From Octopus vulgaris (Eukaryota), in the NCBI GenBank assembly GCA_951406725.2, contig OX597818.1, positions 69,440,001 through 69,504,000 of the forward strand: a stretch of DNA of 64,000 nucleotides, read 5' to 3'. Below the pieces are notes generated by a model. The model was not told where the DNA came from. It was given only the letters and a program-made list of their open reading frames with translations, and ran no database searches. Of the stretch, positions 3,795-64,000 are shown piece by piece. Position 1 is the stretch's first letter; every line of letters starts with the position of its first letter. Position numbers and translations under genes: made by a program.

Positions 3795-4013
3795 ACAGTT
3801 CTATATTTAAGAGACAAGGAATTATGTACATTATTTACATTTGATGGATATTTGTCCTCATCTTGATTGTTGTTAACACAACGTTTTGGCTGATATAACC
3901 TCCAGCCTTCATCAGGTGTCTTGGGGAAATTTCGAACATGGGTTCTCATTCCTAAGGTAATTTTCAATGAATAATAATGATAACAACAACGACAACAATA
4001 ATAATGATGATGT

Positions 4014-4061
<48 letters not shown>

Positions 4062-4093
4062 CGATGATGACGATGATAATGATGATGATGATG

Positions 4094-4142
<49 letters not shown>

Positions 4143-4192
4143 GGAATGAGAACCCAGGTTCGAAATTTCCCCAAGACATCTGATGAAGGCTG
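3795..4192. mobile_element. Penelope-derived inverted (palindromic) element, family A, with HHR
   Basis: 3903-3954 is the reverse complement of 4140-4192 around an (AAT)n/(GAT)n spacer; the same family recurs at 63675-63895. Confidence 0.7.
3875..3920 (-). ncRNA. Type I minimal hammerhead ribozyme motif (G12->A, probably inactive copy)
   Basis: Minus strand reads GACAC-CUGAUGA-a-GGCUG[10 nt]CAGCC-aAAA-CG-UU-GUGUU; helix I GACAC/GUGUU, helix II 5 bp, palindromic AACGUU helix III. Confidence 0.7.
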
Positions 4193-15165: not shown

Positions 15166-15242
15166 TGTTTAGAAACCAAAATATTCTTGACATCATCTCA
15201 ATGTTTAAAACATTTCAAAAAGAACATTTATGATATATATAC

Positions 15243-15328
<86 letters not shown>

Positions 15329-15395
15329 CATTAATGTTCTTTTGGAAATGTTTTAAACATTGAGCTGATGTCAAGAATATTTTGGTTTCTAAACA
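15166..15395. repeat. 70-bp inverted duplication centred on (TA)n(TG)n
   Basis: 15166-15235 is the reverse complement of 15326-15395 with 3 mismatches. Confidence 0.9.
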
Positions 15396-21719: not shown

Positions 21720-22092
21720 TTATTTGTTAGGGAATAAAAATTCTGGCATAACAGGGGTTCAAATTATTCTCAATGAAGAAATATATATTTTCATTTAAAA
21801 ATAGTAGGCCCATTCATCTCAACATATAAAAAAGAATTTTTATTTTAAATACCTACTACTTTATAACTTGGCTACACGTGTTTCATGAGGTACATAAAAG
21901 TGATATAGGGGCCTGATAATTGGGGCCATATTTTAAGAATGGTTCCAGCAAAACATGGAGTGGTTTAGGAACCAGGAAATGTACCTCATGAATCATGTGT
22001 AGCCATGTTATAAAGTAGTAGGTATTTAAAATAAAAATTCTTTTTTAAATGGTGAGATGAAGGGGCCTACTATCTCTAAATGAAAATATATA
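21720..22092. mobile_element. Palindromic HHR-bearing element, family B
   Basis: Arms 21781-21895 and 21979-22092 are inverted copies; (TA)n on both flanks; HHR at 21901-22010. Confidence 0.7.
21901..22010 (+). ncRNA. Degenerate type I hammerhead ribozyme with long helix II
   Basis: GGC-CUGAUaA-[UGGGG..AUAUUU..UGGUUCC/GGAACCA..AAAUGU..CCUCA]-GAAu-CAUGUG-UA-GCC; the other arm keeps an intact GAAA-CACGUG-UA-GCC. Confidence 0.65.
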
Positions 22093-22249
22093 TATATATA
22101 TATATATATATAAAGATACGTATATATTTACATACACACATACACTCCTTTATATATAAAGTCAATAGCTTTTGTTACCTGTGAGATTTAATTACCATGG
22201 GAGATCATTGCTCAAAAATAATAGGAGCCAGAATAAGGATAGGTTAGAG

Positions 22250-24750: not shown

Positions 24751-26022
24751 TGGCTAAGGACGATCCCTTGATAGGCTACTTGAAGGGACTTAAAGAATAC
24801 AAGGATAAGAAATACCAAACATTCTCGAATTTCTCAGAAAAAGAGCTACACCATCAGGCTACACTTGTTGAAAAGAAATGTGTCGTCTTACCAAACAGAA
24901 TCACTCAGCCAAAATGCACAAATGATAATGCACATCACCCCTATTTTTACCCCCTTTCCATCTCCCCTCCCCCCATCACTTCCACTCCCTTTTGCAATGT
25001 GATCAGAGAACTTTTTCTGTGAAGAGACTCAGAACAACAAGAAATATGACCAAGACAAACACAACAATATATATAATGAGTAGTACTAGTATTACAAAGA
25101 GCTAGCTGCGTCACATTCTGTGTCACACTGAATCTTCCTGAGAACTATACTTGTCTGTGGAGTACTCAGCCACTTGCAGATCGACTGGAACACTCATTGT
25201 CACGACCAGCAAAGTGCCAGTCACTTTATCATATATAAACACACACACACACACACATACATATTCTTGAAAAAGGTCATGCCAAGAGCTATGGTATTGG
25301 GAACTAACAAATGTTGGAAAATAGGGGGATATTTCCAGCTTGAATGGCTTTGATCAAAGGTCTACTGTATCAGATTTGGCCAGGAGCTAATCAACCACAC
25401 AAACAAGGAACGACTTCTGATACATTCCAGGGGGCCGGTGATTTAAGTGGGTTTTGAACCACTCACCCCTGCTATATCTTGCTGTCCCACACGAACTGTA
25501 GAAAGGGGGCTAAATAACAGCAACAAATATAACTGCTAAAATAATAAACAAATAATATGATATTTTAAAATAAAGGCTGTGTAAAGAAACCTGCTGTTAC
25601 AAATATTTCTTATAAATTTCAAACTTTGCTAATTAACCAGCAAATACAAATTAATTAGCAATGTAAAATTCAATTGAGAAATAAGTTTGAAAATTTTGAC
25701 AAATAGGAAAAAACTTGTTGTGTTCTAGACAAAACAGGATACATCTAGAAAATGAGGAAACAAACGAATAATAACAATTGAAAGATGCACGCAAAAATCA
25801 AATTATGGGATACATATACATAAATGTACACACACACACACACAAACACACACATACATATGCACATATGCAAATAACATACCTACCAGTCCATCAATCT
25901 GTCTCTCACTCCTCTCTCTCTCACTTCCTCTCTCCCTCTCATTATATATATAGAGAGAGAGATAGATAGATAAATGGATAGATAAATAGATTGCTCTACA
26001 TACACACACACGCATATATATA

Positions 26023-26330
26023 TACATGAGTACTACATTAGGACCTGCTTTGCTAAAAATAGAAGTCAAAATACTTCTAAACCACAGAAGAATCACTCAA
26101 TTCATAGAGGCATGATAGGAAAAGAAATTTTATTGAAAAATCCCTCTAAATTCGAAATCACGATATCCATGACATTCCTTCTGCATCCTTTGCCGAGGTA
26201 AGATGCTATTCTTATACACTAAAATTTCTTTTCCTATCATGCCTGTATTAATTTAATGATTTTTCTGTGGTTTAGGGCTATTTTGACTTCTATTTCTAGC
26301 GCAAAGCAGCTGCTTATGTAATACCCTAGT
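26023..26330. mobile_element. MITE-like element with ~110-bp TIRs, TA-flanked
   Basis: 26025-26133 and 26218-26328 are inverted copies (e.g. AGGCATGATAGGAAAAGAAATTTTA / TAAAATTTCTTTTCCTATCATGCCT); symmetrical ends; no HHR seen. Confidence 0.75.
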
Positions 26331-26432
26331 ATATATATATAAATATATCACATATATAATTATTAATTTTGCTTTTTACGCTCATGGCCACTAACATTGT
26401 TATTTTTAGGAATAATATTGTTCTCTTATATA

Positions 26433-28121: not shown

Positions 28122-28155
28122 TACGCATGTGTTTCAGTCTATTGAACCTCATCAG
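28122..28155 (-). ncRNA. Hammerhead core motif lacking helix I
   Basis: CUGAUGA-GGUU[CAAUA]GACU-GAAA-CACAUGCG-UA; near-palindromic helix III; no helix I partner. Confidence 0.45.
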
Positions 28156-43671: not shown

Positions 43672-43674
<3 letters not shown>

Positions 43675-44046
43675 TTAGAGGAAGATAATTATGGCCTGTT
43701 CATTTGATTACCCAGGGTTTCATGTCCATATAGTGTATAGCTTTACATCCATCTCATCAGGCCCTAATGACTCGTGGCCTATAACCTCTCTTCAGAATGA
43801 CCTTCCTTTGCCTGTGTGTCTTGTGGCTACTTTTTGAACACACAAATAAAGGATGGTCGTTTTAAAGAGAGGTTAAAGGCCACCAGCCATTAGGGTCTGA
43901 CGAGACCCTAATGTAAACCTAAGCGTCTTATGGATGCAAAACCCTGGGTCACCCTTTGAACTGGCCTTTACTTTCTTTCTCTAAATACTCTACTGTTTTA
44001 TAACTCAGAGTTTGTTTCTCATCAGGGTTTATGATTTGCTGACGAT
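43672..44046. mobile_element. Palindromic HHR-bearing element, family C (copy 1), with right-arm tail
   Basis: 43672-43820 and 43836-43987 are inverted copies; HHR motif in each arm; 60-bp tail 43988-44046 shared with 58933-58995. Confidence 0.75.
43874..43970 (+). ncRNA. Type I hammerhead motif (right arm; G12->A)
   Basis: AGGGU-CUGACGA-...-aAAA-CCCUGGG-UC-ACCCU with extended helix I UAAAGGCCA/UGGCCUUUA; the left arm (minus, 43704-43765) keeps CUGAUGA...GAAA-CCCUGGG-UA. Confidence 0.7.
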
Positions 44047-49960: not shown

Positions 49961-50001
<41 letters not shown>

Positions 50002-50040
50002 TAAAAAATGGAGTTAACGCAGGTTTAAACAAGTATTTTT

Positions 50041-50127
50041 ACTTTCTACATATGTTTCAAAAATTCCACTGATACTTATTCAAAAGAATAAAAGGTATAA
50101 ACAATGCAATCTTCTCTTCGGGAAAGT
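50041..50127 (-). ncRNA. Type I hammerhead ribozyme (CCGAAGA core variant), 3'UTR copy
   Basis: Exact mirror of 52291-52377. Confidence 0.8.
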
Positions 50128-50327
50128 GAAAAAACGAAACTTGTCAATACGACATTTTAGCAAAAAATGATGGATTCGTATAGCGATAGACAGAACGCTA
50201 TTAATATCGTTTAAAAAAACGTTATATGATATAACGTCATAAGTAGCTAACAGAAAGAGTAGGGATATTAATAGTGAATGTTAAATATAAAGGAAATTAA
50301 AGTCTAAACTATATATAATGATAGAGA

Positions 50328-51870
50328 CTACTTATATGCACTAAAAGTATGTTTCTGCCAATGCTTACATCTGTATGCTCGTTCTATAACCGTGTTTACT
50401 AGAGTATTTTTAGAAAAAATAATGAAAAATAGCTCAGAATTGCAGAGAAGACAGAATTTCTTGCCTTTGTCATATGGTATCGAAATTGAGAGGATCAACC
50501 ATTCTAAATGAAATTGTTCATTGTGGTCTTTTAAATCCCAAATCAGTTTGCTGAGACCGGTACTATTCCGTTTATTTCTATCTCTAAATGTTGAGTAATG
50601 GATAGAAATTCTCTTAGATAACTCTAACGATGTGCTTCCAATGTAAAATCGTACTTTATTACGAGTACTGATTATACACTGGTATATAGAATTTTTAATC
50701 TTAGAGTTACTTGACATAAATTTAATTCTATTGGGATTGACTTCAGATACAATAACCTTGTTATTAATATTTCTAGAGGGTTGGATGGTAGTAGCTAAAT
50801 TAATGTTAGTATCAGTAAATGTATTAATATTTAACAGTTTGTTATTATGAGAAGATATAATTTGCAAGAGATTTTTTGTGTTTGAAAAACCTATCCTAAC
50901 CTTATGTGAATTAATTATAGAGTAATATCTAGAATTATTTGGAAAATTCCTAGCAATAGCTTGACGAAACAGCAGTGGGAGATTAGATTTAATTTGTCTC
51001 CCGTCTGGAATTATTAACCAAATATTTTTACTAGTATTCATAGCGTAATTACTATTGAAGGTGTTATATTTACTTTTAGATCGGTAATAGGGGAATAAAT
51101 AAGGGTTATCTGCCTTCATTCGCTTTGTATCGGTGCGTAAGTTATGTTTGTTATCAATAATTCTTTTACAACTAGAAATCTTATCTACATTATTGAATTT
51201 ACAATTAGACTGAGCAGAATCAATGTAGAAAATTTTTTTCTGTATAACCTGCTTTGATTAAGGCAGAGTTATAGAATTCAGCATTATTATTGAAAATATC
51301 AATATTAGCAGATAATTTAGATAATCTAAATGAAATATTCTTAACTAAATTCTTAGTAATTGCTCCAGGATGATTACTAAATTTGCTAATGTACTTAAGA
51401 TTGGTCAACGGTTTATGATATGGGAAGTAAGAGTCACTGGGTAAATTAAGCGTAATATCTAAAAAGTTGGCCTTCGTCAGATCGTCATCAAAAACGATTT
51501 TTAAGCCCATTCTACTGAAAAAATTAACTAAACTGTTCTTAACTTTTTGTATCTTTTGATTGGAAACATTTTGGAGGTAAAGTAAACAATCATCACGATA
51601 TAGACCTCCATAAATGTTAGGGAACTCTTCAGCCATTTCAAAAAGAATATATATACAGACCAAATCAGCTATCTGTGCTGAATCAGAACTTCCCATAGGT
51701 ATATCGAAACTATCTGGTGTGTCTTTACGGACCCACAACTTATCATCAAATTTAATAATAGATCTTCTGGCTGCCAACACAACATTAATTTCTTCTCGGG
51801 TGAGACCAGCTTTGTTATGAGCAAGCCAAAGTGCCTTATTAAGTACTATTGGGTTAATAGATGAATAAAA
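50328..51870 (-). pseudogene. Penelope-like RT-thumb-GIY-YIG ORF, 5'-truncated, one frameshift
   Basis: FYSSI, FDIPMGSSDSAQIADLV, GLYRDDCL, FLDITL, SNHP; SIYQC..FYIGST..KRISIH, CLLC.SE, LVN, CKH. Deleting one base from the T7 run 51233-51239 fuses ORFs 51220-51897 and 50328-51119. Confidence 0.92.
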
Positions 51871-52290
51871 ACTGATTTGGGATTTAAAAGACCACAATGA
51901 ACAATTTCATTTAGAATGGTTGATCCTCTCAATTTCGATACCATATGACAAAGGCAAAAAATTCTGTCTTCTCTGCAATTCTGAGCTATTTTTCATTATT
52001 TTTTCTAAAAATACTCTAGTAAACACGGTTATAGAACGAGCATACAGATGTAAGCATTGGCAGAAACATACTTTTAGTGCATATAAGTAGTCTCTATCAT
52101 TATATATAGTTTAGACTTTAATTTCCTTTATATTTAACATTCACTATTAATATCCCTACTCTTTCTGTTAGCTACTTATGACGTTATATCATATAACGTT
52201 TTTTTAAACAATATTAATAGCGTTCTGTCTATCGCTATACGAATCCATCATTTTTTGCTAAAATGTCGTATTGACAAGTTTCGTTTTTTC

Positions 52291-52377
52291 ACTTTCCCGA
52301 AGAGAAGATTGCATTGTTTATACCTTTTATTCTTTTGAATAAGTATCAGTGGAATTTTTGAAACATATGTAGAAAGT
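52291..52377 (+). ncRNA. Type I hammerhead ribozyme (CCGAAGA core variant), inverted-arm copy
   Basis: ACUUUC-CCGAAGA-[GAAGAUU.CAUUG..AUAC..UUAUUC/GAAUAA.GUAU.CAGUG.AAUUUUU]-GAAA-CAUAUG-UA-GAAAGU; palindromic ACAUAUGU helix III. Confidence 0.8.
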
Positions 52378-52564
52378 AAAAATACTTGTTTAAACCTGCG
52401 TTAACTCCATTTTTTATTCATATTATTCAAATATTCAACGTAAACACGAAGTTTCAACCTTTATAAACAAGGAGTTACAACATCTTTACTTGTGAGATTT
52501 TTGCTGCCCTGGTAACTATTCATTCATTTATCCGTGTTAATTGTTAACAAGGTAAAATACACTC

Positions 52565-58640: not shown

Positions 58641-58719
58641 ATGTCCTGTAATTAATGTGAATTTTTATTGATATATATATATATATATATATATCAATAA
58701 AAAAATACACATTAATTAC

Positions 58720-58726
<7 letters not shown>
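58641..58726. repeat. 30-bp inverted duplication centred on (AT)12
   Basis: ATGTCCTGTAATTAATGTG..TTTTATTG-(AT)n-CAATAAAA..CACATTAATTACAGGACAT. Confidence 0.9.
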
Positions 58727-58932: not shown

Positions 58933-59080
58933 ATCATCAGTAAATCATAAATCTAGAAGAGAAGCACTCTCTGAGTTATAGAGCAGCAGATTATTTAGAT
59001 AAAGATAATTATGACCAGTTCAAAGGGCGACTCAGAGCTTTGTGCCACCTTATGAACTGGTCATAGCTATCTTTAGCTAT
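58933..59080. mobile_element. Palindromic element, family C (copy 2, minimal ~150 bp)
   Basis: 58933-59042 matches the reverse complement of 43937-44046; 59044-59079 is the inverted arm. Confidence 0.75.
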
Positions 59081-61490: not shown

Positions 61491-63199
61491 ATATATAAGG
61501 TTGCCTCATCTGATGACATTTTTATTATTATTCAAGGCAGTTGATTATGATTTGAGGGATATTTCACTGCTATTTCTCACAGGCTGAAGGCTTAATAAAA
61601 GATTCCTTCACTTGCCACATATGTTTGTCTGGTTGTCTCTGTTGTATTTCTACATTTGTGTTGCAAGTGAAATCAGGTTCACTTCGTATACAGGGAAATA
61701 TTTGTGATGTAGATATATAAATATATATGTGTGTGTGTGTGTATGTGTGTGTATGTATATGTATGTATATATGACAGAGCAAAATATGTGATGTAAAATA
61801 ATAAACATTATGTGTAATGTAGAGTTATATACGTGAGGTATTGAAATATATTTCATTGTTATCAAACCCCAGCTCAGCCCTTCTAGCTAAGATTTGTGAT
61901 CAAGAGCATTCCAGGCATGGCTGTCCCGCCAACTTTTCAATCAGTTTCCAATTTAACCTAATTCCACAGTAAATGCTAATAGAACTATTCTTTCTATTCT
62001 GTATGCTCTAAATTTCCTGTTGATTCTATTGTTTCTGCCTAATTGAGCAATCAACTTCTATTTTACTGCTATAATTTGTCAGGTAGAATTTGTTTTTGTG
62101 ACGTCATTTTAACATTACCTCCATCTGTTTCTAATTTAATCATGTTTGGGGTATTATATGGCATTTCTCTGCATCGCATTGTTGGCATTATTTATGTAGT
62201 GTGTGCTGTGCTTGATGACTATTCAGTTGATGTGATCTCCGATTGGTCAAAGCAATTTTTATCTCCTCCTGTGACACACACATATCTAGACAAAGCAGTG
62301 ATATTCCTCTTTCCCTCATTTCTAAAATTGGATTTATGATTGAAGACCAATTTCAAAATCTCTCTTCATTCACATAAATATGAAACGTATATGTTTCCAT
62401 GTTAACGGCTTGACATTTTATCTTTTATATTCCTTTATTCTTTTACTGGCTTCAGTTATTTCCCTTTTGCCATTTTAGAGCCCTCCCTCCTATGATTTTA
62501 CTCAATTGTATTAATACCAGGCTTTAAATCAATGAACATAAACACAGACAGGGATCCAGATACAGACATATTTTTATGTATGTGACAACAAGGAACAATG
62601 GTGATATGTTCCCTCATAACACAAAACTCGATAGGAAAACATTTGTGCAGAACACAAGGATCCTGAATAGAATTCCCCACAAAACAAGGCAAAGCACTTC
62701 ACATATATCATGGCACAGTGGTAAATTAAACAAAGATTTAGCAAACAGTAAGCGAAATAAAATAATGCACACTCGACTGATGATGATGTATAATAGTTGA
62801 ATACTGAAATGCTGGCATTAGTGCCGACATCAATGCCATTAGCTTTGCTTGCCATAAACAGGCAGCAACGACACTTCTCCTCGAAGATGAAACAATGAAA
62901 GCCCAGAATACTGTCAGAGCTGTCAACACCATCATACCATCAAAACGTTGGTTATATCAGCAGCAATACTAATATTGATAGCTGACCCCCCTCCCCCCTC
63001 TCTCTCTCTCTCATTCCCCATTTATTTATATACCATTATCATTACCATTCACCATCCACATTTTCATATTTGCATGTTGCCAGACAAGATTCTTTGAGGT
63101 AGATTTTCCATGGTTGGGTACTTTTCTTGTCACCAATCTTTAATTTGTTTCCAAGCAAGCTAATATCTCCCCACAATCCAGACATGTTTTCATCAATGA

Positions 63200-64000
63200 C
63201 ACTGAGGTAACAGCATCACCTGTTCCACTGATTGAGGTCGTTTGTGAGTTTATGCCTGATAGGATGCTGGCAAGTAATGGCGCTTCCAGAACAACACTTT
63301 CAGGAATATCACTTCTAATCAGTGACTTGCAAGAGAGCAGACTCTGTGCAGCAACATAGTGATTCCTTGTCTATAAAATGTTTTTGTTTTTTGTTTTTGT
63401 GATATCAAGATCCTTTAAACTGTAACAGATTATTCCATGATCCATCTTGTCAAAGGCTTTAGCAAAATCGACACATATACAATCAGTATCCATTTCCTTC
63501 AGGAAATTATGAAGTATTATGTTATGGTGCCGTAGTAGTTGCATCCAACATGTTCATCCTGTTTGATAAATTCATACTGTGTATCCTTGAAGCTGCTGTT
63601 TTCCTCTTCATATTTGATTTGTCTTTTTCAAACAATGTGTTCAGCAGTTTTTGATGTGTTAGATGTGATCACAAGATTATTTACATTATTTACATTTGGC
63701 GGATATTTGTCCTCATCTTGTTTGTTGTTAACACAACATTTAAGTTGATATATCCTCCAGCCTTCATCAGGTGTCTTGCTGAAGGCTGGAGGGTCTATCA
63801 ACCAAAACGTCATGTTAACAACAAACAAGTTGAGGACAAATATCCACCAAATGTAAATAATGTACATAATTCCTCATCTCTTAAATATAGATCTGTGTGA
63901 TCAAAACGTGTTTGTAATTTATAGCTTCAGATCTGCCACCTTCCTTGTGTATAGATGTGAACATTGCTTCTTCCAGTATTTCTGGGAATATGCCAGATAC
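63200..64000 (-). mobile_element. CR1-type LINE RT fragment, interrupted at 63675-63895
   Basis: Minus-strand NYKHVLITS..SK, D..CVDFAKAFDKMDHG, SDIPESVVL.PLL (degenerate NYRPISLTS, DF.KAFD.V.H, SGVPQGSVLGPLL). Confidence 0.85.
63675..63895. mobile_element. Palindromic HHR element, family A (copy 2), with ~11-bp TSD
   Basis: 63676-63766 and 63780-63870 are inverted copies, with a ~25-bp tail on the right arm; TGTGATCACAA (63664-63674) / TGTGATCAAAA (63896-63906). Confidence 0.85.

Follow-up and report, generated by a model that had tools for sequence, protein, structure and literature searches.

The features of Penelope-type elements (PLEs) have been set out in several reports. Inverted 5′-truncated copies and one-sided tails of 30-40 bp were listed by Craig et al. 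as general PLE features, and the origin of the inverted repeats and tails was called undefined (PMC8557442). An inverted pLTR, a tail of 31 bp on one side only, and a target-site duplication (TSD) of 9 bp were described for the Pen2a element of Adineta vaga, and other Adineta Penelope copies have TSDs of 8 or 10 bp, or none (PMC3846280). The Penelope element of D. virilis was described with a 34-37-bp end repeat and variable inverted termini (PMC2377424), and Cervera and De la Pena reported pairs of minimal hammerhead motifs (HHRs) on opposite strands, ~100-700 bp apart (PMC4209133). Biochemical data come from PAc (Poseidon of Anolis carolinensis), which in vitro cuts and extends both strands, starts reverse transcription (RT) at two sites bounding the tail, and inserts without HHR cleavage (PMC11167929). 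Self-priming and EN-resolution were proposed by Arkhipova and colleagues (PMC3846280, PMC8557442).

The insert analyzed here lies at 63676-63895 of the window, that is, of the whole 64,000-nt stretch of Octopus vulgaris DNA under study. It was found to consist of two 5′-truncated copies of one repeat end, placed head-to-head and together 220 nt long. It is very probably a PLE retro-insertion of some kind, and a single retrotransposition event in which both target strands were nicked and primed was judged, on balance, to be its probable origin. The first-pass annotation had proposed target-primed PLE insertion, rather than a TA or TTAA MITE, from the asymmetric ends and a TSD of ~11 bp; this proposal was supported by the chance and excision tests, by the two end classes and scattered junctions of the relatives, and by the architecture of the Adineta elements. 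The structure is of a kind already known, and it is likely what a single Penelope-type insertion into an older, decayed LINE ordinarily leaves behind. The locus by itself is unremarkable; repeat annotators might mistake so small and decayed a PLE footprint for a MITE or a microRNA precursor. Its value is that of a clean test case for the origin of PLE inverted repeats and tails.

The nearest likeness is to Pen2a_Av, Pen2_Av, and Pen3a, which have head-to-head inverted pLTRs, a tail on one of them, and an overlap at the junction, and to an Adineta Penelope case of insertion into a non-LTR retrotransposon with a short TSD (PMC3846280). Unlike these Adineta elements, the insert has no ORF or second direct pLTR between its arms; its tail is 25 rather than 31 nt, its TSD is 11-12 nt and imperfect rather than 8-10 bp, and its overlap is 2-4 rather than 15 nt. 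The two end classes described below, which differ by the tail and lie ~90-120 nt downstream of the hammerhead core, resemble those of PAc, and cutting and extension of both strands as by PAc would give the layout of the insert (PMC11167929). The insert differs from PAc in that no protein is known for its family and its target lacks ATT, and head-to-head products are undescribed in the covered parts of the PAc report. The non-LTR retrozymes of metazoans are likewise small non-coding repeats with type-I hammerheads (PMC7229834). Their hammerheads are canonical and in direct tandem (PMC7229834), whereas those of the insert are inverted, minimal, and decayed, and the insert was not placed among the retrozymes.

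No description of twin priming in PLEs was found in the literature search. In L1 twin priming, both nicks are primed, the two cDNAs are joined by microhomology, and the TSD is retained. L1 inversions join different parts of one RNA and have a poly(A) end, whereas the arms of the insert cover the same stretch with two alternative 3′ ends. A description of the insert's family in octopus was likewise not found in the openly accessible articles searched, and the family may already be catalogued in repeat databases or supplements. Nothing specific to it was found in the covered passages of PMC6962438 and PMC7229834.

Anatomy of the insert and its target site

Positions within the family are given as a coordinate x, which was set on the second window copy with x = 1 at hammerhead C3 (63770 in the left arm). 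The arm ends were defined by family homology, without use of the flanking repeats.

Table 1. Coordinates of the insert, its target site, the host remnant, and the second family copy in the window
Feature	Position	Strand	Details
Host LINE-type RT remnant, downstream part	63143..63663	-	Decayed: stops, one frameshift; DFAKAFD motif at 63469
Left TSD copy	63664..63674	+	11 nt, 12 nt with 63675; first 10 nt a perfect palindrome
Left arm, 5′-truncated repeat end	63676..63778	-	x = 95 (outer, short, tail-less) to x = -7 (inner); alignment to 3796-3922
Decayed minimal type-I hammerhead, left arm	63730..63775	-	CUGAUGA core kept; stem II 3′ strand and GAAA box mutated
Inversion junction	63775..63779	.	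2-nt exact (4-nt imperfect) arm overlap, inside the right arm's hammerhead core
Right arm, portion common to left arm	63780..63870	+	x = 5 to 95; without the 5′ strand of hammerhead stem I and some of the core
25-nt tail, right arm only	63871..63895	+	x = 96-120
Right TSD copy	63896..63906	+	11 nt, 12 nt with 63907
Host LINE remnant, upstream part	63907..64000	-	Runs off window end
Second family copy, head-to-head	3796..4192	.	Antisense arm with tail, 3796-~3969; sense arm, 4142-4192, with its end in stem II

The claimed size of the palindrome, 220 nt, was confirmed by homology to the copy at 3796-4192, which runs over 63676-63778 (antisense) and 63777/63780-63895 (sense). The right arm starts with x = 2-5 at 63777-63780, and its outer end, x = 120, is at 63895. 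The stretch from x = -7 to 1 is present only in the left arm and the tail only in the right arm, and neither arm contains the other. Between the arms, 10 of the 90 positions they share are different, and in comparison with the second window copy either arm has 8-9 differences (9 in 102 nt for the left arm). Two changes relative to that copy are common to both arms, at x = 26, where stem II is broken, and at x = 72; the chance of both being shared was estimated as roughly 0.005-0.03. At x = 90 the right arm has C and the left arm has A, and the outer end of the left arm itself reads ATT.

The insert encodes nothing now and is decaying, as seen from the divergence of its arms. Its strand was calculated to fold with -128.6 kcal/mol (z = -21.5), and none of 200 shuffles was as stable; if transcribed, it would form a long dsRNA hairpin. 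In an Rfam scan of the window no family reached the gathering score, and the best match for the insert was a miRNA model far below threshold.

Direct repeats were found at the sites where the first-pass annotation had placed them, with 10/11 matches, a period of 232 nt, and an exact stretch of 8/8. Extended inward to 63675/63907 they match at 10/12, and this 12-mer abuts both arms, base 63675 adjoining the left arm end. Random non-repetitive flank pairs reached at least 10/11 in 5, 28, and 83 of 40,000 trials when a slack of 1, 3, or 5 nt, respectively, was allowed at the arm ends; without any slack, the flanks of the insert score 2/11, because base 63675 separates the left arm from the 11-nt repeat. 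The one or two mismatches of the TSD fit the age of the insert, given the differences of the arms from each other and from the second copy. No duplication was found outside 63664-63906. The target site lacks the 5′-ATT-3′ motif preferred by PAc. Of the family's two window copies, the present one has a TSD of 11-12 nt and none was found for that at 3796-4192; two copies are too few for a length distribution.

Removal of the insert together with one repeat had been claimed to restore the host frame, and this could be reproduced, as excision of 232 nt gives ...NYKHVLITSNTSKTAEHIV in one frame. Eight excisions were tried. NYKH-x-x-ITSNTSKTAEHIV was read in a single frame after all three of 232 nt; those of 229, 235, and 220 nt kept the frame with altered motif spacing, and the MITE-style excisions of 240 and 242 nt shifted the host frame. 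Only the 232-nt excision yielded both the frame and the expected motif spacing. The restored frame is in register with NYRPISLTSxxxKxxExI, which we take to be a LINE RT motif; it was not found in print in the literature search.

A point absent from the first-pass annotation is that the left repeat forms a perfect palindrome of 10 nt. The two repeats can thus pair with each other in inverted orientation as well, and the possibility of a MITE or other DNA transposon whose TIRs include the palindromic flanking word therefore had to be tested. The size and hairpin form of the insert are indeed MITE-like. However, its ends are asymmetric by 25 nt rather than forming symmetric TIRs, and if the repeats are read as TIRs, no TSD is left outside them and the corresponding 240- and 242-nt excisions disrupt the host frame as described above. 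Single, tandem, and variably truncated relatives also exist, and the arms carry a PLE-type minimal hammerhead. A MITE origin was deemed largely refuted already and extremely improbable.

Hammerhead motif and relatives of the family

The sense strand carries a stem I, CUGAUGA, a single unpaired A, a stem II closed by G-C, and, ahead of the cleavage triplet, a palindromic stretch. Judged by sequence, these are hallmarks of the minimal type-I hammerhead of metazoan PLEs as given in PMC4209133. The likeness includes the unpaired base between 9 and 10.1, the G10.1-C11.1 pair, the palindromic 15.2-16.2, and the lack of helix III; unlike the motifs described there, both arm copies are decayed and one is cut within the core (PMC4209133). 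The minimal motif is recognizable in three window arms, and its predicted cleavage site, after x = 36, would fall at 63735/63734 in the left arm. G12 is missing in all three window copies covering its position, although 12 of the 13 protein frames that were informative do have it (12 of them from sister subfamilies). Stem II is mismatched in both arms, and the right arm is without the 5′ strand of stem I. When folded, the copy at 3.9 kb alone formed both stems (z = -2.0); neither arm of the insert folds so. No Rfam hammerhead match was observed in either family copy at the gathering score or at E <= 10. The designation of the insert as an HHR palindrome is therefore apt as far as a minimal type-I motif is recognizable in it, but the motif is decayed and intact in neither arm (G12 lost, stem II broken), and the intact core with G12 and the stems I and II of an active minimal type-I hammerhead are not found in the insert. 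Elsewhere in the window, at 28155 on the - strand, a lone hammerhead-like motif was observed outside any palindrome; its CUGAUGA...GAAAC core is intact and its stem II is 4 bp long.

The inversion junction had been described as lying in or beside the HHR core. It does fall in the core, but lies 31-43 nt upstream of the predicted cleavage site and is not conserved. A junction at the cleavage site was ruled out here; among the 16 palindromic relatives, three have an end at x = 35-36, in one case through a frameshift artifact, and these were considered too few to interpret.

The relatives were collected by means of an open frame across the copy at 3.9 kb, which matches an Octopus bimaculoides UniRef entry at 82%, a result that points to an octopus host, and 195 ORF clusters at 50% identity. 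The survey covered the 150 of these 195 clusters that were listed, of which 149 were used, P0026 (475 aa, cysteine-rich repeats) being left out of all counts as a chance match. It consists of translated sequences, most of which belong to a sister subfamily and which are biased to open frames, and the many database "proteins" of the family are probably spurious ORFs called on the repeat. No autonomous RT/GIY-YIG partner was found, as none of the 150 matches listed exceeded 238 aa apart from one chance match, and a protein search for longer homologues of the family frame was empty. The search for family copies in prokaryotic genome contigs gave 86 loci against ~69 expected by chance, with a longest match of 36 nt around the seed; these were chance matches, and the element itself was not detected there.

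Sister-type ends were scorable in 94 of 104 cases. Of the 11 tail residues, 3 or fewer were shared by 27 ends, 8 or more by 59, and an intermediate number by 8. In these translations the relatives' ends fall in two classes, tailed and tail-less, tail identity being bimodal, and the two outer ends of the insert match the two classes. Among 24 close relatives, x = 90 could be placed in 16 and not in 8; C was found at 6/8 tailed ends and at 0/8 short ends (Fisher p = 0.007). At x = 72, the close relatives have Ser in 13 of the 17 placed and Pro in none, with 2 placements visibly wrong and 7 proteins unplaced.

An antisense arm followed by a sense arm, as in head-to-head palindromes, was found in 16/149 proteins. 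In these 16, the inner ends were placed between x = -90 and +47 and the starts of the sense arms between -78 and +33. Of the inner ends, at least five (P0007, P0021, P0067, P0087, and P0121) look misplaced by frameshift or overlap, so only the scatter was used. The first-pass annotation had suggested that junction positions be collected across the family; among the 16 database palindromes they proved to be scattered, none being common to all. In the sister subfamily, head-to-tail units of ~43 codons restart in one register just upstream of the hammerhead (23/25 matches), and these units resemble a small tandem retrozyme-like derivative.

The scatter bears on the proposal that a pre-formed palindromic non-autonomous element was copied whole, which predicts many copies sharing one junction. 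Such a master would account for the single TSD around both arms and for the two changes that the arms share, and fixed-junction derivatives do exist in the form of the sister head-to-tail units. It was nevertheless considered highly improbable, as the surveyed palindromes have no one common junction and two nearer copies join elsewhere, namely the palindromic close relative P0025, whose junction differs from that of the insert, and the second window copy, whose junction lies in an upstream microsatellite.

Routes to the head-to-head arms

The structural features expected of a PLE were observed in the insert, namely a 5′-truncated inverted copy in a head-to-head repeat, a one-sided tail, which at 25 nt is somewhat below the quoted 30-40 nt, and a hammerhead motif within the pLTR. 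For the origin that we favor on balance, a PLE protein acting in trans would have cut the LINE remnant with a stagger of 11-12 nt. RT primed from one nick would have begun at the distal start site, x = 120, and so taken in the tail, whereas RT primed from the other would have begun at the proximal one, x = 95. Both cDNAs would have stopped after ~100-118 nt, near the hammerhead, and would then have been joined via the 2-4-nt overlap, gap filling producing the TSD. A single transcript or source locus probably served as the template, as two changes are common to the arms. One of these, at x = 26, disrupts stem II, so that self-cleavage was probably dispensable.

Because each arm has a stretch that is missing from the other, the pair cannot have arisen just by one arm folding back and being copied, and each arm would have needed an outside template or later trimming. 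As PAc cuts and extends both strands and starts RT at two tail-bounding sites, priming at both nicks would be the simplest route. It is further supported because the tailed right arm has C and the tail-less left arm the class-specific A at x = 90, an argument that rests on one base in this copy. The changes shared at x = 26 and x = 72 fit one copied strand, or later conversion between the arms, at least as well as two primings. Points against priming at both nicks are the lack of an autonomous partner, a target without ATT, a tail shorter than 30-40 nt, and a second copy without a TSD.

A single priming would instead require that one cDNA folded back at a short self-complementary stretch near the hammerhead and copied itself, and that the endonuclease trimmed the tail from one end during resolution, in line with the self-priming and EN-resolution ideas of PMC3846280 and PMC8557442. 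The two derived changes common to both arms would follow directly from such copying, the junction overlaps a small native hairpin, and the left end reads ATT, the cut motif preferred by PAc, which suits endonuclease trimming. However, the extra trimming step is needed because the arm reaching further upstream is the tail-less one, and C would be predicted at x = 90 in both arms, whereas the base found in the left arm is the A of the short class. For a cDNA that ends at x = -7, the 3′ end was calculated to be paired with a probability of only 0.19, which places this position 19th among 86, so a favorable fold-back hairpin at that position is unsupported. This route was regarded as possible, if rather unlikely. 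With two end classes, a diagnostic base that separates them, and copies as numerous as the ORF clusters suggest, the family lends itself to a genome-wide comparison of two-nick priming with fold-back.

It was also considered whether the insert is what remains of a longer inverted-repeat PLE insertion, like the 2.4-kb one at 49995-52423, whose centre was later deleted between short overlaps so that the two outer ends were left. The window does contain long head-to-head PLE insertions, and an overlap of 2-4 nt at the junction could reflect deletion just as well as joining. No second event is required by the sequence, however, and short head-to-head forms with varied junctions are common among the relatives. 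Deletions are also expected to break rather than to create near-perfect palindromes. Loss of a centre was accordingly deemed improbable.

A broader hypothesis, which we put forward as speculative and doubtful, is that the 5′ edge of the hammerhead acts as a built-in RT stop and template-switch point, that the short end arises by a telomerase-like slip on a 9-nt repeat, and that octopus PLEs mass-produce ~200-nt hairpins and ~130-nt tandem units, both centred on the ribozyme, the hairpins being a major and self-contained source of dsRNA for the exceptional A-to-I editing in octopus. A stop at the hammerhead edge is suggested because the left arm stops at x = -7, where the sister tandem units restart, although a single founder explains their common register equally well. 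The telomerase-like slip would explain the A/C split between the end classes. Very high hyper-editing and dsRNA potential have been reported for octopus and, in the covered part of the report, were not assigned to repeats (PMC5625713), so the family hairpins are candidate editing substrates.

Host remnant and other palindromes of the window

The host of the insert had been labeled CR1. A decayed RT remnant with LINE-type motifs was indeed found, but the CR1 label was not confirmed, as it rests on RT motifs that are in register and no Pfam RT match was obtained in the host LINE pieces. The Atlas gave an RVT_1 lead only, in 13% of a cluster, with a score of 0.95. PDB sequence searches with two LINE pieces gave chance matches only, the protein database gave no RT match, and no second copy of the host LINE was found within the window.

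The first-pass annotation had taken this insert as the best single piece of evidence that the mini-palindromes are retro-insertions. A flanking direct repeat of at least 8 nt was observed at only 1 of 9 window palindromes examined, the present insert itself; the best direct repeats at the other eight were 4-7 nt and mostly in microsatellites. The site thus tells well how this one insert arose, but it cannot yet speak for all mini-palindromes.

The centre of the second family copy, 3970-4141, is an (AAT)n/(GAT)n/(AAC)n run, which recalls the Asn-rich inserts of Adineta Penelope elements described in PMC3846280. A young Penelope-type insertion at 49995-52423 is also head-to-head, with 555-nt inverted arms that have 2 differences. 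It contains a 5′-truncated RT frame (51220-51906, - strand; RVT_1, E = 0.0016) and an overlapping frame (50328-51257, - strand) with a YIGST motif and GIY-YIG Atlas leads. Its left end lies in a (TA)n run, a search for a TSD found none, and no DNA similarity was detected between this RT/GIY-YIG element and the insert's family. The palindromes at 15166-15395, 21781-22093, 26014-26340, and 58641-58726 have no clear TSDs, several end in (TA)n, and scans for hammerhead cores found none in them (the last being scanned once). The palindromes at 43672-44046 and 58933-59079 constitute a second palindromic family, with a common one-sided extension of ~60 nt and CUGANGA-like words in their arms.
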